A stretch of DNA of 64,000 nt from a virus (lineage: Duplodnaviria > Heunggongvirae > Uroviricota > Caudoviricetes), in the IMG/VR virus record IMGVR_UViG_3300029732_000280. The stretch is one strand, 5' to 3'. Position 1 is the first letter of the stretch. The number at the start of each line of letters is the position of its first letter. The notes below the pieces were generated by a model that was given only the letters and a program-made list of their open reading frames with translations, ran no database searches and had not been told where the DNA came from. Positions 3,799-12,584 of the stretch are shown here, piece after piece. The position numbers and the translations under genes are program-made.

Positions 3799-3860
3799 CG
3801 TCCCTTTCTGTGTGCAGTCTTTTCTACATTTATATTATAAGGTTTGATCGATGATTTGAC

Positions 3861-3879
3861 TGCTACCTATCATGTAGCA
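3861..3879. promoter_or_regulatory. Operator palindrome O1 (TGCTAC-N7-GTAGCA) in the divergent promoter region. Overlaps a TTGACT -35 for the plus strand and AGTCAA-17-TATAAT for the minus strand.
   Basis: Perfect 6-bp inverted-repeat arms seen directly. Lies between the XRE gene and the divergent ATPase operon. Confidence 0.6.
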
Positions 3880-3890
3880 CGTTTCGCATT

Positions 3891-3911
3891 TTGCTACATA
3901 TCAGGTAGCAA
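3891..3911. promoter_or_regulatory. Operator palindrome O2 (TTGCTAC-N7-GTAGCAA).
   Basis: Perfect 7-bp arms, 12 bp from O1, same half-site. Confidence 0.6.
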
Positions 3912-3978
3912 AACAGCCTTAGACCACATAACAGATAGAGGTGTAGACCTTTGCGACCTTAGATTTCCTGTAATCAAG

Positions 3979-4047
3979 TTGCTATGTATTTTTCTCTGCG
4001 GGATAATCGTAACAGCCTTATGCGGGTACACATAAGGAGGAACATAC
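3979..4047 (+). promoter_or_regulatory. Promoter of the XRE gene: TTGCTAT-N17-GATAAT, then RBS AAGGAGG. A member of the repeated TTGCTAT...CTGCGG...ATTAT promoter family found in the accessory island.
   Basis: TTGCTATGTATTTTTCTCTGCGGGATAAT here, compared with TTGCTATATATGTGTTTCTGCGGCATTAT at 43805. Confidence 0.55.
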
Positions 4048-5232: not shown

Positions 5233-7533
5233 TCACACCGCTTCTTCCCTCTCGCGCTTCGCTGCAGTTGTCAGGTATCTGCGGTACTGAATGCTGAATC
5301 CGTACACCTTATAAGGAGCATCCACATAGACCACATTGCCGTCCATGTCACTCCGCTTATAACCCATGAAGCTGTCGAGCGTTCTGCGGTTGCCTTTTGA
5401 GGTCAGTGTCACACCGAAGTTTGTCTTATAGGTTGCCACATCCCCCTGCAGTACCCCGCTCTCAACAAAAGCACAGTAGATGCCTTTTTCAAAGTGGAGC
5501 ATATCTGGTGCTTCTGCGATCCGCTCAGGAGTCAGCTTGAGCTTTCCGCTGGTGATGGCACGTTTCCGGCCTTCGATGGCATTTCCGTCCACATCCCGAA
5601 GCAGGGTTCCCTGTACATCCAGACCGTTGACTCTCAGCGGCATTCCGCCTGCATTGGTATCCGGCAGTTCTTTCAGACAGGCAAGGAAGTATTCAAAGTT
5701 CTTTTTCATGATCGCCAGCACACCCTGTTCTTCCTCTATCGTCTGCCGTTCCTGTTGGAGTGTTTTCAGCCGTTCCTGCAGGTCGTTCACAAGTTCTGTA
5801 TAAATCTGGGCTTCCGAACCTTCCTCCGTTTCCGTTCCATAGAAGCTCACTCCGATGCTTCCCGGTGTCAGTCCGCTCCGGATGTCCAGGTCGATGTCAT
5901 CAATGGTCACCTCCCCGTTGGAAAGGGCTTCATTCAGTTCCACGTTCTGTTCCAGTGCAGCTTCCCGAAGCGCCGCCACCTGATGGCTGATGGCATCCTG
6001 CAGGCGTTCTTCCATCTCCTTGATCTGATTTTCTACCGTTGCCATCCTCTGCACCGAGATGCTGTTGTTATTCGCCAGCCGGACAGCCTGCTCATAGGCA
6101 TTGTCAAACATCGTCACGATCATGGAGGCATCACCGTGCTGTTCAAAGTCACGCTTCATGCTGTAGAGCAGTTCCATGAAACTCTGCTCCAGCGCACACT
6201 CATGGTAGCGTTCTGAGGGGCAGCGCTTGTTTGCCGCTTCCTTTTCCTCATCCGACATGCAGCCTTTCTTGCTCCGGCAATACGCTTTCTGGTCGGGAGA
6301 ACCGTTCTTCGGCGGCTCACCGTCCCGCTCCCCGACCTTACGCTTGCACCGCCAAACGGGATACGAATAGGTGTATTTTTCCAGATACTCTCCGGTATCC
6401 TCACCAGTCGCCTTAAGACTTCGCTCATCGCTGTAACCATTTGCCACACCCGTGTAGGTTGTACGGAAGAATCCCTCCCCGCAGGGCTTTCCGGCATCCG
6501 GCCCATTCTCCAGGATCGCACCGCAGCGCAGGTTTCCAAACGGAGAACCCTTAATGCTCTTTACCTTTTTCTTGCCGGGGCCTTTCGTCATATCTGCCCT
6601 CGGCTTCTCGAACAGCATGGTCTGTACCTTATCCCAAGTCACACGGTCGATGATGCCCACATGATGGTTCTTCACATAGTACCGGGGTGCTTCGCCCTTA
6701 TTGATGCTGGAACGGTGGGTAAGGAAGTCCTTCGTGATGGTCTTCTGCATCTCAATGTCGCCCACATACTTCTCATTCCGCAGGACGATCAGGATCGAGC
6801 TGGCACTCCACTTCTTCCCATTGACCGTGAACTTTTCCATCTGGTTCAGCTCCTGAGCGATCTTATTCGCCGTTTGGCCTTTCACGAAACGGTCAAAAAT
6901 GTAGCGGATGATCTCTGCCTGCTCCGGCACGATGACCCACTGCTTATTTTCCCCAAGCTCATATCCCAGCATCCGTTTCAGATTGATATGCGGGACACCA
7001 GACTGGAACTTCTTCTGGATGCTCCATCGGATGTTATCGGAAATGGAACGGCTCTCATCCTGTGCCAGTGCAGAAAGGATCGTCAGGATCAGCTCACCTT
7101 TGGCATCCAGCGTGTCGATATTTTCTTTCTCGAAATAGATACCCACTGGCGGCTTCAGCTGCCGAAGCTCACGGGTACATGTCAGGGAGTCAATGGTGTT
7201 TCGCGCGAATCGGGAAATGGACTTTGTAACGATGTAGTCCAGCTTTCCATCCATCGCATCTTTTATCATGCGGTTGAATTCTTCTCGATGTTCCCGGTTC
7301 GTACCAGATTTTGCTTCATCCGCGTAGATGCCGGCAAAGATCCAGCCGGGCTTCCGGGTGATGAGGTCTTTGTAGAATGCTTTCTGTGTCGTGTAGGAAG
7401 TCTGCTGGCTTTCATCTCCCGTGGAAACACGGCAGTAAGCCGCCACACGGATGTTGGTCTGGCTTTTCAGCTGCCCGCCGTTCTGTACCGAGCGCACACT
7501 GGCGGGGATCACATCCACTTTTTGTCTTGTCAT
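5233..7533 (-). CDS. Large serine recombinase (766 aa).
   Basis: AAYCRVSTGDESQ, SISRFARN, long coiled-coil C-terminal half. ATG with RBS GAAAGGAG. Confidence 0.9.
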   Translation of the reverse strand: MTRQKVDVIPASVRSVQNGGQLKSQTNIRVAAYCRVSTGDESQQTSYTTQKAFYKDLITRKPGWIFAGIYADEAKSGTNREHREEFNRMIKDAMDGKLDYIVTKSISRFARNTIDSLTCTRELRQLKPPVGIYFEKENIDTLDAKGELILTILSALAQDESRSISDNIRWSIQKKFQSGVPHINLKRMLGYELGENKQWVIVPEQAEIIRYIFDRFVKGQTANKIAQELNQMEKFTVNGKKWSASSILIVLRNEKYVGDIEMQKTITKDFLTHRSSINKGEAPRYYVKNHHVGIIDRVTWDKVQTMLFEKPRADMTKGPGKKKVKSIKGSPFGNLRCGAILENGPDAGKPCGEGFFRTTYTGVANGYSDERSLKATGEDTGEYLEKYTYSYPVWRCKRKVGERDGEPPKNGSPDQKAYCRSKKGCMSDEEKEAANKRCPSERYHECALEQSFMELLYSMKRDFEQHGDASMIVTMFDNAYEQAVRLANNNSISVQRMATVENQIKEMEERLQDAISHQVAALREAALEQNVELNEALSNGEVTIDDIDLDIRSGLTPGSIGVSFYGTETEEGSEAQIYTELVNDLQERLKTLQQERQTIEEEQGVLAIMKKNFEYFLACLKELPDTNAGGMPLRVNGLDVQGTLLRDVDGNAIEGRKRAITSGKLKLTPERIAEAPDMLHFEKGIYCAFVESGVLQGDVATYKTNFGVTLTSKGNRRTLDSFMGYKRSDMDGNVVYVDAPYKVYGFSIQYRRYLTTAAKREREEAV

Positions 7534-7567
7534 AATCTGCTCCTTTCTTCCAGCCTTGCAACTGGTC

Positions 7568-9928
7568 TTATCTTACATACCTCTTCCGCTGGCTGCCGTC
7601 GCGCATCGTATGCCCGTCATAATAGCTTGCGGTATTGCGGTAATCTTCGATATTGGAATCCATCTCTACCTCGGTCTTGGTGTCATCGAACCAGTGGACC
7701 GTAAACTTCAGCGGTGAATGGATCGTGATGGAGAGGAGGAATGCCTTGCAGTGTTCTTCGGTCACTTCATTCAGAAAGGCCACCGTACCATCCCGCCCCG
7801 CCGGGAGGTTCTTCATCCACTCGATTGCCTTTTCCCTTCGTTCATAGTCGCCCTCCAGTTCTTCCCAGTAGTCTTCCATATAGTCGAGCTGTTCGGTCAG
7901 TTTCTGCTCAGTGTCCGTGTCCTTCTGAATATCACACTCCAGTTTCTCAATGAGCTTTTTCTTCTCCTCAATAGAAGCAGGGTCGATCATCTCGTCACCG
8001 AGAAGTTCCAGACGGGTCTGCATCACATCCACCTGACTTTTCAGGATCCGGATCTTCTTACTGGTGCTTTCCACACTGGTGTGTGCGGCCGCTATCTGCT
8101 TTTTATAAAAAGCACGGTCGCGTTCCATAAAATCCAGCTTCTGAATGCTCTCCAGCCGTGCAAGCATCTGGCTTACAAAAGAATCTGCTTCCGTGGTGAA
8201 GTTGTCATACTGCTCTTTGAACCGGCCGCTCATGATGTCTGCCACAGCCACGTTGTCATGGATGGGCTTAAGCGTCAGCCGGAACCGCTCCAGAACTGCT
8301 TTACGGAAGGCTCGGACAACCTGTTCCTCGTATACTTTTTCTGCATGGCAGATACGTTTTCCTGTCGTCCGGCTGCTCGTCGGGCACCGCCAGATGGGAT
8401 AGTTCCCATTTCCGTTTGTCACATGGAAAAAGCGGCCGCACTCCCCGCAGATTAGTCTTTGGGAAAACGCTCTCGGCTTCTTGCTGGATCTTGTCCTGTT
8501 ATATAAATCGCTGTTTACTTTTACAACTTCCTGTGCCTTTTCAAACAGGTCCTCGTCAACGATTGCCGGATGATGGTTCCGGACAAAATACTGAGGAACT
8601 TCGCCTTTGTTGTCCCGGACTTCATGTGTCAGGTAATCCGATGTGAACTTCTTCTGGATAAGGACTGCACCCATGTACCGCTCGGCACGGACGATCCGCG
8701 TGATATTCCCGCCTGTCCATCCATCCAGCAGATCACTGTTTAACTGCCCTTTCTTGGATTTTTTCTTTCTTACTCTCACTGCGTCGGTGACAGGAGCCGG
8801 AATCTTGTCCATGTTCAGTCCCCTTGCAATCTCCGTATAGGCTTTCCCTTCCACAACTTCATGGAAAATGCGCCGGACGACCCTGGCTTCTTCCTCAACG
8901 ATCTCAATATCTTTATACTCATATCCGCTCTCGGAGGTAACCATCTTCCCATTGTAGCGGTATCCGTACATGATCTTGTTTGGAACATCCCCCTTCGGAA
9001 AGCGCATCTTCTGCCCCAGCCGGATGTTGCTGGAAATGCTGCGGCTTTCTTCCTGTGCAATGGCTGCCAGTGTCGTAAGGATGAAGTCGCTGGTCGGGTC
9101 TGCCGTATCCAGATTTTCTTTCTCGAACAGAATCGTTACCCCGCAGTCATGCAGGACATCCAGTGCACTCATAAAGTCAGCCGTGTTTCGGGCAAATCGT
9201 GATATGGACTTGCACACAATGCGGTCGATCTTCCCGTCCTTACAATGGCGCATCAGTCGGCGGAATCCGGTTCTCTTTTCCTTTGAAGTGCCGGAGATGC
9301 CGTAATCGGAGTACACACCGACTGCATTCCATGCCGGATTATTTTCAATCAGCTGGTTAAAGTATTTTTCCTGCGTTTCATAGGAGTTCTCTTGGTCGCT
9401 CATGTCCGTAGAAACGCGGATGTAAGCTGCCACATTAAGGGTTCCGGCTTTCTTTTTGGTAGCCCGGAAGGTCGCCGTCGAAACGAACTTGTTATCCTGC
9501 GGTTCTTCCGGTGTGAAGAGCTTCGTAAACTCACTCTCCATACTGCTCTGCAGCCGTTCTACAATGTCCGGCTCTGCCATGACCTTTTTGGCATCCAGAG
9601 CTTTCTGGATAAGAGCTGTGATACCGGCGTCCACGATGTCTTTTGATTTTTGGGGTGTCTGTTTTTTATCTGATGCGTTTTTGGGTTTTTGTTGAGTAGA
9701 CCTGCCCTGGTGCGTATCAGCCAGTGGTAAAAAAGAAGCTGTGGCAGCATCCGTACTTTGACGAACATCTGCCACAGCTTCCACAGGTTTCTTTTTCCCA
9801 AGAGCGGCTTCCAGTAAAGCCGAGACATCCACAGCAGATGCATTTACTCTCTTCTGCTGTTTCTGCTGTACTGTATTCTTCACAGTCTTTTTCTGCAGAT
9901 TTGCAAGGAAATCCGTACCAGTACTCAT
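7568..9928 (-). CDS. Large serine recombinase (786 aa) with a ~160-aa basic N-terminal extension.
   Basis: AAYIRVSTDMSDQ, SISRFARN, Cys-rich zinc-ribbon region CGECGRFFH...CPTSS. ATG with RBS GGAAAGGAG. Confidence 0.9.
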   Translation of the reverse strand: MSTGTDFLANLQKKTVKNTVQQKQQKRVNASAVDVSALLEAALGKKKPVEAVADVRQSTDAATASFLPLADTHQGRSTQQKPKNASDKKQTPQKSKDIVDAGITALIQKALDAKKVMAEPDIVERLQSSMESEFTKLFTPEEPQDNKFVSTATFRATKKKAGTLNVAAYIRVSTDMSDQENSYETQEKYFNQLIENNPAWNAVGVYSDYGISGTSKEKRTGFRRLMRHCKDGKIDRIVCKSISRFARNTADFMSALDVLHDCGVTILFEKENLDTADPTSDFILTTLAAIAQEESRSISSNIRLGQKMRFPKGDVPNKIMYGYRYNGKMVTSESGYEYKDIEIVEEEARVVRRIFHEVVEGKAYTEIARGLNMDKIPAPVTDAVRVRKKKSKKGQLNSDLLDGWTGGNITRIVRAERYMGAVLIQKKFTSDYLTHEVRDNKGEVPQYFVRNHHPAIVDEDLFEKAQEVVKVNSDLYNRTRSSKKPRAFSQRLICGECGRFFHVTNGNGNYPIWRCPTSSRTTGKRICHAEKVYEEQVVRAFRKAVLERFRLTLKPIHDNVAVADIMSGRFKEQYDNFTTEADSFVSQMLARLESIQKLDFMERDRAFYKKQIAAAHTSVESTSKKIRILKSQVDVMQTRLELLGDEMIDPASIEEKKKLIEKLECDIQKDTDTEQKLTEQLDYMEDYWEELEGDYERREKAIEWMKNLPAGRDGTVAFLNEVTEEHCKAFLLSITIHSPLKFTVHWFDDTKTEVEMDSNIEDYRNTASYYDGHTMRDGSQRKRYVR

Positions 9929-10028
9929 AGTTTTCGCTCCTTTCCTGCCCGTTTTCTTCTCTTTGGGCAGTCACATATTCCCTCTGTTTCGTGATATTAT
10001 CAAGTAATTTCGGCGCAGAAAGACGGAG

Positions 10029-10047
10029 AATAATCTGGGAGATTATT
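10029..10047. repeat. Perfect palindrome AATAATCT-GGG-AGATTATT about 100 bp upstream of the third recombinase gene. Candidate recombinase-binding or att-core-like site.
   Basis: 8-bp perfect inverted arms seen directly, in an AT-rich non-coding region. Confidence 0.3.
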
Positions 10048-10166
10048 GTCTTATCTGCACGATTTTTATTTTTATTTTGTTTCTTTTTCCAGTTGCGATT
10101 TTTCCGATTCCGCATATACTATTACTGAGCGTGATAGTTCACACGCCACAAATTATTCCAGAGTAC

Positions 10167-10194
10167 TTGTGTTCTGGTTATTTTGTGTTATAAT
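10167..10194 (+). promoter_or_regulatory. Strong sigma-A-type promoter: TTGTGT-N16-TGtTATAAT (extended -10).
   Basis: Seen directly. About 190 nt upstream of the 10392 CDS start. Confidence 0.6.
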
Positions 10195-10198
10195 GAAC

Positions 10199-10375
10199 TT
10201 AGAGGATAGCGGCATTGACCAGCTATCGTGGCGTTGAAGCAGTGGACTGGTTCGGTTTCAGCCGATTGTGGAGCCTGCCCGTGGGTTATGCGACAACCAC
10301 AAGCCGAATAGATTCTTTGAATCGAACAAAAACGCTTAATGAGAGCCTTGCTACGGCAGGGCTCTTATTTTTTGG
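10199..10375 (+). ncRNA. Candidate structured 5' leader or small RNA (about 175 nt) ending in an intrinsic terminator just before the CDS. Riboswitch/attenuator-like layout, class not recognised.
   Basis: Promoter, then a region with multiple stem possibilities (GATTGTGG...CCACAAG, GATTC..GAATC), then the terminator, then RBS AAAGGAG and ATG at 10392. Confidence 0.35.
10342..10375 (+). terminator. Intrinsic terminator/attenuator inside the leader.
   Basis: AGAGCCTTGC-TACG-GCAGGGCTCT stem (one G-U) followed by TATTTTTTGG. Confidence 0.7.
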
Positions 10376-10391
10376 CAAAGGAGATGATGGC

Positions 10392-10997
10392 ATGAGTACC
10401 GATATACTATATGAAGCGGCATTAACGTGGAAAGAACTAATGCAGTTCAATTACGTTTTTACATATGGCTACAAAAAGCAGCTTCATACCATCACTCTCG
10501 CTTTCCCACCTGAGCGATTTCCGCATCTTGCAGGTTTTCAATATTTGACTGATGTCAGTCTGCCACGATTCAACCGGTCAAAAACGCTTGACATGATCCT
10601 GCGTAAAAAAATCATGCTTTCTCAGATCGAAAAAGGCTCTCAATATCAGGAAAGTGTAAAGCCCCGCCTGGAAGCATTGGTTCGCTTAAAGCAAACAATT
10701 GAACAGGACTTTATCCTCCATTCCTACATGCCGCGTTTTTATTCCTTCAGCACCCAAATACAAGCTGATTACCTGATTTCTAAAGCTACACCGCCAATTG
10801 ATTTTATCTTTATCATCCGATCAACTTCATCAGGTGACATTTCCGTTTGTGATGTTGTTTGCTGCTCTGCTTTTACACAAACAGACCGAGATTACCGTGA
10901 GAACCAGCGCCCACGAACAATCCTGAAAAAAGAACGGATTTGCGTTTCAACATCTGAAACTGTTATCTTATATGATCGGCTAACCGGACAGGAATAG
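10392..10997 (+). CDS. Hypothetical 201-aa moron protein with its own promoter, leader and terminators, sitting between the lysis cassette and the recombinases. The ORF-track start at 10215 is a TTG reading through the leader; real start is the ATG at 10392.
   Basis: RBS AAAGGAG 8 nt upstream of the ATG. Plus strand, opposite to the phage genes. No confident family match. Confidence 0.55.
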   Translation: MSTDILYEAALTWKELMQFNYVFTYGYKKQLHTITLAFPPERFPHLAGFQYLTDVSLPRFNRSKTLDMILRKKIMLSQIEKGSQYQESVKPRLEALVRLKQTIEQDFILHSYMPRFYSFSTQIQADYLISKATPPIDFIFIIRSTSSGDISVCDVVCCSAFTQTDRDYRENQRPRTILKKERICVSTSETVILYDRLTGQE

Positions 10998-11009
10998 CCC
11001 ATTTTGAAA

Positions 11010-11042
11010 GGCACAGCCCACACCTGGTTCTGTGTCTTTTTT
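11010..11042 (+). terminator. Terminator after the moron gene. A second hairpin (CCCCGCC...GGACGGGG plus T5) lies at 11093..11122.
   Basis: GGCACAGCCCACACCTGGTTCTGTGTC hairpin followed by TTTTTT. Confidence 0.65.
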
Positions 11043-11120
11043 CATATTCTTTAACATTCAGCTAATTCACCTCGCAATAATGTTTATGTACGCCCCGCCC
11101 TGTAAGGACGGGGACTGTTT

Positions 11121-12584
11121 TTAGATACGGGATGCAAAGTCAAGTGCGATCCAGCCTGCACCGGATTTCAGCTTGCCCCAGCCCTTTGCAGAACCAGCAC
11201 CGGCAGCTTCTGCCACGATGGTAAACACGCCCTTTCCGGTGTAATAACCGGTCTTACCGTAATTCGTGCCCGGTCCCTTGCGGATGTTGAGGTCTTTAAT
11301 GGATACACGCACAGTGTACGGGACTGAAGACTTCGGTTCCGGGTAGACGGCCTTACCCGCCGGGTCAAAAACATAATAGCCCGGATTCTTATCCGCGCAC
11401 TGCTTTGCATAGGTGAGGTCGTGGAACGCACCTTTCTGGGAAGCGGCATTCTGCCAGCTCTTACGGACACGGTACCAGCCGGAAATGGTGGTGCTTCCAG
11501 CAGCCGCATTGTACTGCGTCAGGTTCCAACGCTCGATGATATTGCAGAGATCCTGCACATAGGTGTGACTGGTAGCATAGCCACCATCCTTGATGATCTG
11601 TGCCGCTTTCTTGTAATCAGTGCAGCCTGCCAGACCCTCGTAGCGTTTCCTGCTGCCGTTCATCGCACCGAGCAGATATGCCGCATGGTCGGCAATGGAG
11701 TCTTCCACACAGGCGTACTTACGGAAGTCAGCGGTGATCGTGACCATCGAACCGTCATCGTTCTGCTCCTGCGTTTTCTTGGTATAGACGGACTTGCCAT
11801 CCCAACTGCTGCCGCTCCAGCTGTTCCCGGAAAGCGAAGTCTTCATGCCGAAGCAGTTATTGGCATTCTGTGCCAGCTCAGATTTGCCGTAGCCGGATTC
11901 CAGAATGAACTGTGCCATCGACACGCAGGCAAGGATGCCCGTGGTTTTCTGGTTCGCAGTAAACAGCGGACCGATCTTTGCCACGGCTTCTGCTTCCGAG
12001 AGATTCTTGAGCGAAGAAGCCTGCATGCCGGATGAGGATGAACCGCCCAGTGCTACAGTTACCCTTGCGGCCAGATCACCCAGGCGGGCATACAGCCAGT
12101 TTCCAGGGCAGCTTTTGTTGGCAAACCAGCGGTGAACGGTCAGCACCATTTCATCTGCCGCCGGAACATAGTTGAGTGTCTTATTTTTATCACCCAGCCA
12201 CAGGAGCTTCTTCTTCCCGTTACGCTTGCAGATATCGATGCAGAGCTTGACGAGAGAGTCATATACGGCACTGTTCATGGCATACGGCTCATTCATGTCG
12301 CTGGCGCACTCGATGGTGACAGCCCTCTGGTCATTGGCATTGCTGGACGAACACCAGCTGCGGTTCTTTTCCTCGACACAAAGTGACACCCGCCCATCCG
12401 TACCGATGCCGTAGTTGCAGCTTGCCTGACGGCTCGTGCTGGTAAAGCAGCCGCAGATGCTCTCCGCAGAAAGCTGACCGACCACACAATGCGGTGTGAT
12501 GCGGTCGATACTGTGTGTCCTCTGCCCGGAATGGTTCGGGGAGAGCTTGGTGTAAACAACGAGTGGACTATTGGTATATCCCAT
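11121..12584 (-). CDS. Modular endolysin: N-acetylmuramoyl-L-alanine amidase (Amidase_2/PGRP-like), a glucosaminidase domain, a shared wall-binding domain, and a C-terminal SH3b domain.
   Basis: Amidase_2-like N-terminus. FILESGYGKSELAQNANNCFGMK is a glucosaminidase (LytD/FlgJ-type) motif. The C-terminal NIRKGPGTNYGK...GWGKL region is SH3b-like. Confidence 0.85.
   Translation of the reverse strand: MGYTNSPLVVYTKLSPNHSGQRTHSIDRITPHCVVGQLSAESICGCFTSTSRQASCNYGIGTDGRVSLCVEEKNRSWCSSSNANDQRAVTIECASDMNEPYAMNSAVYDSLVKLCIDICKRNGKKKLLWLGDKNKTLNYVPAADEMVLTVHRWFANKSCPGNWLYARLGDLAARVTVALGGSSSSGMQASSLKNLSEAEAVAKIGPLFTANQKTTGILACVSMAQFILESGYGKSELAQNANNCFGMKTSLSGNSWSGSSWDGKSVYTKKTQEQNDDGSMVTITADFRKYACVEDSIADHAAYLLGAMNGSRKRYEGLAGCTDYKKAAQIIKDGGYATSHTYVQDLCNIIERWNLTQYNAAAGSTTISGWYRVRKSWQNAASQKGAFHDLTYAKQCADKNPGYYVFDPAGKAVYPEPKSSVPYTVRVSIKDLNIRKGPGTNYGKTGYYTGKGVFTIVAEAAGAGSAKGWGKLKSGAGWIALDFASRI

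Follow-up and report, generated by a model that had tools for sequence, protein, structure and literature searches.

How a lone plus-strand gene with a long structured leader comes to stand among minus-strand phage genes, and what its leader does, are the questions raised by positions 10160-10997 of a 64,000-nucleotide stretch of DNA from a Caudoviricetes virus (hereafter the window). The surrounding phage genes are on the minus strand, with serine recombinases at 5233-9928, an endolysin gene at 11121-12584 and long ORFs running from the endolysin to about 40.5 kb; a Pfam scan of these neighbours covered the recombinases, the endolysin and a LysM/SH3 protein only. A preliminary description had taken the gene for an independent moron, flanked by lysis genes on one side and recombinases on the other, and the minus-strand neighbours and the locus's own promoter bear this out. 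The anatomy that it proposed is also real. A promoter, a structured RNA of about 175 nt, an intrinsic terminator, a ribosome-binding site (RBS) and a 201-aa ORF follow one another on the plus strand, with the leader and terminator just 5' of the RBS:

10167..10194, plus strand: sigma-A-type promoter, read from the sequence and conserved in homologous loci
10205..10227, plus strand: P0, a 5'-terminal hairpin GGAUAGCGGCAUUGACCAGCUAUC, lying 5' of the Rfam drum model and present in the minimum-free-energy fold
10229..10340, plus strand: drum RNA core (Rfam RF02958), identified by cmscan, with helices P1, P2, P3 and P4 and a pseudoknot
10340..10373, plus strand: intrinsic terminator, seen in the fold and conserved in homologous loci
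10378-10383, plus strand: Shine-Dalgarno sequence AAGGAG, read from the sequence, 8 nt 5' of the ATG
10392..10997, plus strand: PBECR4-family gene (Pfam PF18813), 201 aa, ATG at 10392
11098..11123, either strand: terminator-like hairpin from a consensus scan, CCCTGTAAGGACGGGG then ACTGTTTTTA, a weak call

The promoter is composed of a -35 element TTGTGT (10167-10172), a 16-nt spacer and a -10 element TATAAT (10189-10194) that is extended by TGTGt at 10184-10188, giving TGTGtTATAAT across 10184-10194. A consensus scanner missed it because the -35 element matches the consensus at only 3/6 positions. The motif TTGTGT-N16-TGtTATAAT had been picked out in the preliminary description and it stands, since TTGAnn-N16-18-TAnnnT recurs at an equal distance from the RNA in 67 of the 77 unique homologous loci used for promoter and terminator counts. 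A conserved (T)AGAGG begins roughly 7 nt past the -10 element in these homologous loci, and transcription is predicted to start near A10201.

At the other end of the RNA, the terminator is a GC-rich hairpin of 10-14 bp at 10340/10342-10367 (14 bp in the fold), whose core stem pairs 10342-10351 with 10356-10365 around a UACG loop and is followed by T6 at 10368-10373. The consensus scanner missed this element as well, and its equivalents were counted with our own scan. They are present in all 77 unique loci, never more than 10 nt from the drum RNA and 0-3 nt past it in 75, and seven of the eight stem pairs covary (alignment A5). The terminator originally placed at 10342..10375 is thereby confirmed; it is predicted to form the 3' end of a small RNA and to attenuate transcription into the ORF. 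Only 18 nt separate its U-tract from the start codon in the window, which leaves no room for a separate PBECR4 promoter, and in homologous loci this interval holds the RBS alone, arranged as in the window, and no promoter. Expression of PBECR4 presumably depends on transcripts that start at the drum promoter and read through the terminator. The read-through transcript likely ends at the hairpin at 11098..11123, which sits between the convergent PBECR4 (plus) and endolysin (minus, ending at 11121) genes.

The leader belongs to a catalogued RNA family that the preliminary description had missed. The Rfam scan that it recommended returned a full-length match to drum, with 91.9 bits against a gathering score of 43, an E-value of 6.7e-18 and coverage of model positions 1-112 of 112. 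This is the sole Rfam match above the gathering score within the 64-kb window. In an Rfam E-value scan, tRNA-like and other known RNAs could be set aside, as drum was accompanied only by chance matches to isrJ, istR and BTnc005. A search of annotated phage records for similar DNA yielded a single match, MT837643.1, which is short, lacks annotation and lies in the RNA region. The window RNA is a full-length member of the published motif, with all helices, the 3' terminator and an associated protein gene nearby.

Its structure is supported by both folding and comparison, as had been anticipated for the leader. The region 10195-10395 folds at -66.2 kcal/mol (z = -2.4), and in an alignment of 65 distinct drum sequences (A3) 90.9% of cells are paired and 15 of 24 pairs are changed on both sides. 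None of 500 shuffles attains these values, slid controls are 27-40% paired, and the result was repeated on alignment A5. The pseudoknot joins the P2 loop UCGGU (10252-10256) to GCCGA (10303-10307); it is 96% paired and shows three compensatory changes in homologous locus L080. The P0 hairpin, which may serve as a 5' stabiliser, is 97.4% paired with five of eight pairs changed on both sides (A5, 57 sequences).

Drum is among the few widespread, highly conserved bacterial RNAs of the 2017 survey by Weinberg et al. still without an assigned function, and we found no published function in the literature searched. Its discoverers judged that its properties fit RNAs with a 'sophisticated biochemical function', considered such motifs improbable riboswitches and described as compelling the association of drum with a neighbouring protein, which can lie in either orientation (Weinberg et al., 2017; PMC5737381). 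The association with this neighbour, which they left unnamed, was their sole clue. To that description we add a conserved promoter and P0, both outside the Rfam model, the identity of the partner as Pfam PBECR4, the co-occurrence of the two measured in both directions, and a functional hypothesis.

The protein had been thought to match no nameable family, which proved incorrect. It is a member of Pfam PF18813, PBECR4 (108.2 bits against a threshold of 27, E 8.6e-31), with residues 5-196 aligned to profile positions 1-187 of 188, and all 401 homologues that we collected also belong to PF18813. Invariant residues include H45, within an FPHLAGF motif, R92, T121, D126, S159, R166, Q172, R173 and K180; H45, R92, T121 and S159 are unvarying among 58 homologues. 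PBECR4 is predicted to be a metal-independent BECR-type endoRNase and is a candidate toxin. An AlphaFold2 model made here reached a pLDDT of 82; fold searches with it returned no significant match of any kind and did not confirm the predicted BECR fold. Profile and single-sequence searches of all PDB chains for relatives of ToxN, CptN or TenpN gave nothing relevant, no PADLOC defence model matches, NCBIfam has no match for the protein, and PHROGs gives only a weak match to a family of unknown function. The literature searched offered no experimental evidence that PBECR4 is toxic, cleaves RNA or binds drum, and nothing linking either partner to toxin-antitoxin systems.

The Pfam name derives from domains of phage polyvalent proteins, and the window protein fits the model bearing that name. 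Its N-terminal helical motif contains a conserved histidine, as described for most PBECR families, and the domain occurs here as a solo phage version (Iyer et al., 2017; PMC5512222). PBECR domains were proposed there to be injected anti-host or anti-CRISPR effectors. A term search of that paper brought up no mention of a partner RNA (PMC5512222), whereas the solo PBECR4 of the window is a moron linked to an RNA gene and would be expressed from the lysogen.

We measured the association of RNA and protein from both sides. Starting from the protein, we assembled 80 loci in which the start of a window-type PBECR4 gene is preceded by 200 nt or more of sequence. Drum lies upstream on the same strand in 78 of them, down to 33% protein identity, always in the order drum, terminator, gene and with its end about 50-70 nt from the start codon in nearly all. 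The two exceptions are a truncated gene and a locus with a different RNA and the same terminator and RBS. These loci come from hosts assigned to several Bacillota families (Lachnospiraceae, Faecalibacterium), apart from a few metagenome bins labelled otherwise, and their flanks are unrelated. Starting from the RNA, PBECR4 adjoins 86 of 136 evaluable drum copies, near-identical contigs being counted separately: it is downstream on the same strand in 74, convergent in 12 and not detected adjacent in about 50 (~37%). The protein is thus almost never without the RNA and the RNA is often without the protein, a pattern expected of a toxin and its antitoxin.

Drum and its terminator are an autonomous small-RNA unit. 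Promoter and terminator are often kept in orphan drum loci, two drum copies lie inside phage tRNA arrays, and others are found in viral-collection contigs of 89-233 kb, the size of jumbo phages. These comparative data favour the alternative that the preliminary description had offered in passing, namely a small RNA with read-through into the ORF. PBECR4 copies that are truncated, frameshifted or disrupted by insertion sequences also occur, and in some loci the RNA is kept after the PBECR4 gene has been lost. In the 49 genomic loci whose flanks are complete, no gene other than PBECR4 is conserved beside drum (47/49, the next family 5/49), and clustering of the neighbours found no third gene of the module.

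[quoted passage not shown] The observation itself was correct: Tandem Repeats Finder (TRF) at its lowest score threshold reports none in the leader, and none are found in 9900-11200 save an ATTTTT run. The ground for dropping the idea did not stand, as repeats are found in a second PBECR4 subfamily (Pfam E 2.3e-29). In every locus of this sister subfamily that we examined, a promoter is followed by a 5' hairpin, 52-nt repeats, a terminator, an RBS and the gene. The repeat unit is present as two tandem copies (52-nt period, 2.2 copies, 90% matches), and the RNA is not in Rfam. [quoted passage not shown] The two subfamilies have the histidine motif in common; compared directly, they are only weakly similar (hhalign E 8e-4). 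Together with the documented RNA antitoxins that lack repeats, AvcI (PMC10511110) and RCd22 (10.1101/2025.04.15.648962), the sister layout makes the type III idea the best-supported one.

Compared point by point with type III systems (ToxIN, CptIN, TenpIN), the window locus and 78 of the 80 homologous loci likewise have an RNA gene upstream of a candidate toxin gene, on the same strand and under one promoter, and a Rho-independent terminator intervenes in 77 of 77 unique loci, so that the toxin would be made by read-through. The toxin in both kinds of system is an endoRNase, by prediction in the case of PBECR4, both are small mobile two-part modules of phages, plasmids and defence islands, and both have orphan RNA copies in phages. 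The differences lie in the molecules. The tandem-repeat antitoxin of the type III systems is found in the sister subfamily and not in the window, whose RNA is a single pseudoknotted unit of about 112 nt with flanking hairpins. Homology to ToxN/AbiQ, CptN or TenpN is absent too, as the only Pfam match is PBECR4, a family unrelated to these toxins by sequence and without a fold match.

A closer architectural parallel is RCd22 of the phi027 prophage of Clostridioides difficile, which belongs to the abiF motif, another RNA of the 2017 Weinberg survey (10.1101/2025.04.15.648962). There, a sigA promoter, the ncRNA, a terminator and the toxin gene follow one another with no promoter before the toxin, and direct binding by the RNA neutralises AbiF, whether the RNA is supplied in cis or in trans; the short RNA is the main product, accompanied by a read-through co-transcript (10.1101/2025.04.15.648962). 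The drum locus has the same order of parts and is likewise prophage-borne in a gut clostridial host. In contrast, AbiF_Cd is an Abi_2/AbiF protein (HEPN-like, Cas13-related) rather than a PBECR4, and its RNA consists of two abiF hairpins of 33-35 nt rather than the drum pseudoknot. We also considered whether the locus is itself an abiF-motif system. Pfam returned PBECR4 only and Rfam drum only, with no abiF RNA motif (RF03085), and the likeness is one of architecture, not homology.

The AvcID system shows that an RNA antitoxin can do without repeats. AvcI is a non-repeat small RNA and AvcID is nevertheless classified as type III; the RNA, in excess, binds and inhibits the toxin, which is activated when a phage shuts off transcription (PMC10511110). 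Unlike the predicted RNase of the drum locus, its toxin deaminates dCTP/dCMP; avcI and avcD have no predicted terminator between them, and neither the RNA nor the protein is related to drum or PBECR4.

On balance, we lean towards reading the locus as a type III-like RNA-antitoxin/toxin moron for abortive infection, analogous to AbiF/RCd22. The sigma-A promoter with its extended -10 element would drive an RNA of about 170 nt consisting of P0, the pseudoknotted drum core and the terminator hairpin. Most transcripts would end at the intrinsic terminator and yield an abundant drum small RNA, while a minority would continue into PBECR4, whose ORF is supplied with an RBS only and lacks a promoter. 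On the model of ToxIN, AbiF/RCd22 and AvcID, the drum RNA would bind and neutralise PBECR4. If transcription of the locus were shut off, for example by a superinfecting phage, drum would decay and PBECR4 would be freed to cut cellular or phage RNA, with the result that the infection is aborted or the prophage stabilised. We infer RNA-protein binding, toxicity, RNase activity, the read-through ratio and the anti-phage role from these analogous systems.

Control of PBECR4 by drum as a cis-acting leader, in which the RNA senses a ligand or PBECR4 itself and sets read-through of the terminator, is a further way to read the same architecture, and we consider it distinctly improbable. In the subfamily to which the window protein belongs, drum always precedes the gene in the same orientation and abuts the terminator, the gene lacks its own promoter, and in 27 of 44 sequences the 3' arm of the terminator finds its best upstream pairing in GGAGCC, the 3' strand of P1. 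RCd22, too, was initially called 'riboswitch-like', and in cis it reduces the expression of abiF 17-fold (10.1101/2025.04.15.648962). However, the search for alternative terminator and antiterminator folds that the preliminary description had called for went the other way. Duplex energies of the terminator arms with upstream RNA, set against those of shuffled arms in 44 sequences, revealed no conserved antiterminator: the mean z was +0.16 for the 5' arm and -0.68 for the 3' arm, no more complementarity than shuffled arms have. The terminator stem (mean -13.0 kcal/mol) is also stronger than the best alternative pairing (-9.5 kcal/mol), and in 46 of 57 sequences the terminator is retained in the minimum-free-energy fold. 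The riboswitch reading is therefore not supported. Obligate placement in a 5'-UTR does not hold either, as the RNA-terminator unit stands without a detected PBECR4 neighbour in many loci, is convergent to the gene in 12 and also occurs in tRNA arrays; this too speaks against the riboswitch, T-box or attenuator first proposed for the leader. Weinberg et al. thought riboswitch function improbable for these motifs (PMC5737381), and a constitutive terminator suffices to explain the layout.

The same independence of the RNA could mean that it is a partner of the protein rather than its inhibitor, which we think unlikely, if less so than the cis-acting leader. Drum would then scaffold, guide or activate PBECR4 in a ribonucleoprotein; PBECR4 might instead process or stabilise an RNA that acts in trans (for example on the ribosome, tRNA or RNA polymerase). 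Orphan drum would on this view work with a protein encoded elsewhere or alone. This would agree with the pseudoknot fold and the extreme conservation of unpaired drum nucleotides, with the judgement of sophistication and the protein association in either orientation reported by the discoverers (PMC5737381), and with the persistence of the drum sequence in the ~50 loci without detected PBECR4, jumbo-phage contigs among them. Against it, the order of promoter, RNA, terminator and gene would put the RNA in excess over the protein, as is typical of antitoxins and has a precedent in RCd22, the sister subfamily carries short tandem repeats like those of classical type III antitoxins, and it is the protein that is almost never found without the RNA, the reverse being frequent. 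Finally, the two could be coincidental neighbours, with drum an independent small RNA of phages and mobile elements, perhaps a marker of insertion hotspots, and PBECR4 unrelated cargo. The varied genes found behind drum suggest as much, since it is followed by an AAA_21 ATPase pair (L120), an IS200-type transposase and AIPR (L106), an endolysin (L105), or a GNAT and a SecB-like gene. The co-occurrence statistics nevertheless disfavour coincidence, which we regard as very improbable: in 78 of 80 cases drum accompanies PBECR4 with constant spacing and orientation, in hosts assigned to several families and amid unrelated flanks, PBECR4 has no promoter of its own, and the sister subfamily holds an analogous RNA unit in the same position.

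Taking the antitoxin reading further, we tentatively propose, with rather less than even confidence, that PBECR4 defines a new type III-like family of RNA-protein toxin-antitoxin or abortive-infection systems, in which the toxin is unrelated to ToxN, CptN and TenpN and the antitoxin comes in two interchangeable forms, 52-nt repeats or the drum pseudoknot. Orphan drum in large phages, beside lysis genes or in tRNA arrays, would then be an antitoxin mimic that disarms host PBECR4. Such a role recalls the pseudo-ToxI antitoxin mimic of phage PhiTE. What is new here is that the neighbour of drum is the predicted RNase PBECR4, that an RNA unit with a terminator practically always precedes the gene, that a sister subfamily carries type III repeats, and that the RNA unit is autonomous and also occurs alone in large phages. 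If the proposal is true, it would provide a function for an orphan RNA that the 2017 survey placed among the 'sophisticated' ones and a new toxin family for type III systems, and a single complex pseudoknot could do the work of a repeat array in an RNA antitoxin. Lachnospiraceae and Faecalibacterium of the human gut would then share a common defence carried by prophages, and their phages possibly an RNA-based counter-defence.

We found no single alternative partner protein for the orphan drum copies. In the PBECR4-less loci whose same-strand downstream content was inspected, which were some of the total, the cargo is varied and also includes an ATPase_2/DUF234 protein, a DUF2290 protein beside a long helicase-looking ORF, and an acidic ORF of 210 aa. 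The drum sequence is far more conserved than the protein, with 81% mean column identity and many invariant unpaired bases, and this strong conservation persists in loci without PBECR4. A simple antitoxin that co-evolves with its toxin would not usually be so conserved, which may point to another conserved partner or activity of drum.

The plus-strand drum-PBECR4 unit of the window sits between two large serine recombinase genes and an endolysin gene:

5233-7533, minus strand: serine recombinase gene (Pfam)
7568-9928, minus strand: second serine recombinase gene (Pfam)
10167-10172, plus strand: -35 element TTGTGT (read from the sequence)
10184-10194, plus strand: extended -10 element TGTGtTATAAT (read from the sequence)
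10340-10373, plus strand: intrinsic terminator, a GC-rich hairpin followed by T6 (sequence and fold)
10378-10383, plus strand: ribosome-binding site (RBS) AAGGAG (read from the sequence)
10392-10997, plus strand: PBECR4 open reading frame of 201 codons, ATG at 10392 (read from the sequence)
11121-12584, minus strand: endolysin gene (Pfam)

The -35 and -10 elements are separated by a 16-nt spacer, and the RNA that follows the promoter, about 140 nt, folds well. The preliminary description had proposed a promoter, a structured leader, a terminator before the RBS and a 201-aa ORF, and all of these are present in the window sequence and fold; a simple consensus scanner overlooked the promoter and terminator, which were recovered by folding and by comparison with homologous loci. 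Beyond the endolysin, long minus-strand ORFs extend as far as about 40.5 kb. The prophage end adjoining the module carries the two adjacent recombinases (766 and 786 aa, with Resolvase and Recombinase domains), and no family matches the 132-aa ORF at 9717-10115 on the minus strand.

The leader is a known structured RNA. In an Rfam scan, 10229..10340 matches the drum RNA (RF02958) over its full length (91.9 bits, gathering score 43, E 6.7e-18), and no other Rfam family exceeds its threshold within the 64-kb window. The protein, previously said to match no family, belongs to Pfam PF18813, PBECR4 or ‘phage-Barnase-EndoU-ColicinE5/D-RelE like nuclease 4’ (108 bits, E 8.6e-31), as do all of its 401 homologues in a large protein database; the few homologues with a named source come from Blautia, Lachnospiraceae and Clostridiales genomes or bins. 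PADLOC and NCBIfam hold no model that matches the window protein, and PHROGs gave just a weak match to a function-less family. Both family memberships are already known biology. Drum was first described by Weinberg et al. 2017, who deemed motifs of this type improbable riboswitches, and whose passages on drum propose no function and note its co-location with a protein left nameless (PMC5737381). Iyer et al. 2017 defined the PBECR domains, predicted to be metal-independent RNases, which occur in the polyvalent proteins of phages and also as solo phage versions (PMC5512222).

Because PDB sequence searches with PBECR4 gave no match, the predicted BECR assignment depends on the Pfam family name; a ToxN, CptN or TenpN relative was clearly rejected, again with no PDB sequence match. 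A confident AlphaFold2 model (58-sequence alignment, pLDDT 82, pTM 0.80) has an N-terminal beta hairpin, helices and then six strands. The invariant residues H45 (in FPHLAGF), R92, T121, D126, S159, R166, Q172, R173 and K180 are candidates for the active site. A 260-aa TTG-started ORF in the window (10215-10997, plus strand) is the PBECR4 ORF extended upstream through drum and the terminator. Gene callers often over-extend PBECR4 in this way (P0001, P0014, P0035 and other homologous proteins), many database entries being 255-300 aa long, and drum is hidden in annotated genomes because of these extensions across the RNA and terminator. The plausible start is the ATG that follows the RBS and gives 201 aa.

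Co-occurrence was examined among 80 genomic and 24 viral-contig loci encoding PBECR4 relatives. All 17 diverse loci submitted to the Rfam scan carry drum on the strand of the gene, down to 33% protein identity; the distance from the RNA end to the start codon is about 50-70 nt in 16 of them and about 215 nt in the remaining locus, L020. A covariance model built from Rfam drum hits detected drum in 78 of 95 scanned sources, and the 17 negatives include 10 without upstream sequence and five 5'-truncated gene remnants, one of them IS-disrupted. Where the PBECR4 5' end and enough upstream sequence are available, drum is present in 78 of 80 loci. One exception (L072) is a 3'-truncated PBECR4 gene with no RNA; in the other (L078), the gene is preceded by a different RNA, with the terminator and RBS arrangement unchanged. 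This L078 RNA (3820-4002), upstream of a PBECR4 of the window protein's subfamily and unrecognised by the drum model, could represent a third type of RNA or a drum copy in advanced decay. PBECR4 is the only conserved neighbour of drum (47/49 genomic loci with full flanks; runner-up family, 5/49), which makes the pair a mobile module of two parts, complete in itself.

The transcription unit is likewise conserved. An intrinsic terminator lies within 10 nt of the drum end in 77 of 77 unique loci (0-3 nt in 75), and TTGAnn-N16-18-TAnnnT stands about 35 nt upstream of drum in 67 of the 77. A conserved hairpin, P0 (GGAUAGCGGCnnUGACCAGCUAUC), lies after the predicted transcription start and 5' of the Rfam model; it is 97% paired in a 57-sequence extended alignment, with 5/8 pairs changing on both sides. 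The structure noticed in the window leader is conserved across homologous loci: the Rfam helices are supported by covariation at 15 of 24 pairs, values reached by 0 of 500 shuffles, and the extended alignment supports these helices too; 7/8 pairs of the terminator stem covary in it. In the same alignment a pseudoknot between the P2 loop UCGG(N) and CCGA (10252-10256 with 10303-10307 in the window) is 96% paired, and one locus, L080, carries three compensatory changes in it. The distance from the U-tract to the start codon leaves space for an RBS alone, and PBECR4 is therefore presumably expressed via read-through from the drum promoter.

To avoid circularity, drum was also sought RNA-first: viral and metagenome contigs were searched with a degenerate DNA pattern, and the covariance model served to confirm the matches. 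This yielded 155 copies, near-identical contigs included, of which 19 were too close to a contig end and 136 were evaluable. A window-type PBECR4 lies directly downstream on the same strand in 74/136, a convergent PBECR4 of a distant subfamily has its stop codon 54-64 nt after drum in 12/136, and no PBECR4 is detectable beside about 50/136. There is a clear asymmetry: PBECR4 almost never occurs without drum, whereas drum often occurs without PBECR4. The PBECR4-less copies often keep the promoter, P0 and terminator, and their settings vary among loci.

Diverged drum copies (49-90 bits) occur in seven viral contigs of jumbo-phage size, 89-233 kb (L121, L122, L125, L126, L130, L132 and L133), where PBECR4 is absent beside them. 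Here drum lies 30 nt after a 136-aa ORF, downstream of an M23-like 457-aa protein and small membrane-protein-like ORFs, by eye a probable lysis cassette, and is convergent with an acidic 206-213-aa ORF lacking a Pfam match. Phage PhiTE mimics an antitoxin with pseudo-ToxI; the orphan copies carried by large phages would be consistent with mimicry of this kind and may be antitoxin-mimic or counter-defence RNAs. Elsewhere, other cargo lies beyond drum and its terminator in the same orientation: an AAA_21/AAA_15 ATPase and its 247-aa partner (L120 6201-8650, minus), an AIPR abortive-infection gene behind an IS200-type transposase (L106 3368-5624, minus), or, directly adjacent, an endolysin gene (L105 7228-8725, minus). 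These loci suggest replacement of cargo downstream of a retained RNA unit. Some PBECR4-less copies adjoin GNAT and SecB-like genes. Weak variants lie within phage tRNA arrays, on the tRNA strand (L117 4289-4397, 65 bits; L136 2850-2956, 56 bits). Colicin D and E5-type BECR nucleases target tRNA, and this placement would be suggestive if PBECR4 does so.

The PBECR4 proteins convergent to drum form a second subfamily (Pfam match E 2.3e-29) with weak profile-profile similarity to the window type (E 8e-4), centred on the F-x-H-x-x-G-F motif. Eight loci from diverse members, four of them distinct, gave no match in an Rfam scan. Immediately upstream of each gene stand, in order, a promoter, ‘AGG’ with a 5' hairpin, 52-nt repeats, a strong terminator and an RBS. 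The repeats are two tandem copies (TRF: period 52, 2.2 copies, 90% matches) whose unit contains …GAUGCAGGGCRUAGGGACCUGAGGUUGGCGGRCAACGAUAAAAYC…. Repeat RNA units ahead of this subfamily include:

L263, 2740-3003
L265, 2745-3003
L267, 2760-3003
L269, 2760-3003
L157, 4880-5140, minus strand
L173 and L187, further loci

This order, with a candidate toxin gene last, is the defining type III toxin-antitoxin layout as read from the sequence, and drum stands in the place of the repeats in the window-type subfamily. The preliminary description had looked for a type III arrangement and found no tandem repeats; TRF also finds none in the window leader, and the layout, with 52-nt tandem repeats and terminator, occurs in the sister subfamily. 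The repeat RNA has the look of a so far undescribed RNA antitoxin of the repeat type, and the system is a candidate for a new type III family.

The 52-nt motif precedes every convergent subfamily-2 gene of the RNA-first set and is kept in about a dozen loci where that gene is gone. In eleven loci (L179, L188, L189, L193, L205, L206, L213, L221, L235, L249 and L261) a single copy lies about 130-150 nt past the drum terminator on the opposite strand with no subfamily-2 PBECR4 in between; the candidate toxin gene appears to have been deleted and both RNAs retained. In Faecalibacterium loci L003 (about 6700) and L006 (about 6701, minus strand) the motif lies about 2.1 kb downstream of drum-PBECR4, which hints that both module types share one island.

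The preliminary description had likened the locus to a gene controlled by a riboswitch, T-box or attenuator, with an sRNA read through into the ORF as its alternative. The real terminator arms are no better matched to upstream RNA than shuffled ones (mean z over 44 sequences: 5' arm +0.16, 3' arm -0.68). With a mean of -13.0 kcal/mol the terminator stem is stronger than the best alternative pairing (-9.5), and the terminator persists in the minimum-free-energy fold of 46/57 sequences; a terminator/antiterminator switch is thus not supported. The 3' arm has a recurrent best upstream partner, GGAGCC, the 3' strand of helix P1 (27/44 sequences; alignment columns 80-89, window about 10273-10282), and this pairing is weak (mean -9.5 kcal/mol) and non-significant against shuffles. 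Because of these results and the stand-alone and convergent drum copies, drum is unlikely to sense a ligand and regulate in cis; the layout is explained by a constitutive terminator setting a high RNA:protein ratio.

The best-supported explanation, towards which we lean on balance, is that the locus is a type III-like module of RNA antitoxin and protein toxin carried as a prophage moron, whose effect would be abortive infection or the exclusion of superinfecting phages, perhaps with prophage addiction as well. This reading is plausible because of two experimentally studied systems. AbiF_Cd/RCd22 of a C. difficile prophage has, like drum-PBECR4, the order sigA promoter, ncRNA, terminator and toxin without its own promoter; its RNA, also carrying a motif from the 2017 Weinberg survey, neutralises AbiF_Cd in cis and in trans (10.1101/2025.04.15.648962). 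In AvcID, the antitoxin is a non-repeat sRNA, as is the drum of the window, and disappears upon transcription shut-off (PMC10511110). The main rival has drum acting as a cofactor or partner RNA that does more than inhibit; it is favoured by how extremely conserved the unpaired bases of drum are, also where PBECR4 is missing, and we consider it rather unlikely. Less likely than either are a cis-regulatory leader, which we find improbable, and a coincidental neighbourhood of drum and PBECR4, which we find very improbable indeed.

We searched the literature for drum linked with PBECR4 or toxin-antitoxin systems and found no such paper. New relative to this literature are the identification of drum's partner as PBECR4, the co-occurrence statistics in both directions, the extended transcription unit (promoter, P0, pseudoknot, terminator and RBS), the tandem-repeat counterpart of the sister subfamily and the resulting type III-like hypothesis. 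Weinberg et al. suspected kinship of drum with DUF3800-associated RNAs (PMC5737381), and a DUF3800-XI RNA (59.8 bits) lies at 1872-1919 of locus L013, about 1.9 kb upstream of its drum-PBECR4 unit.
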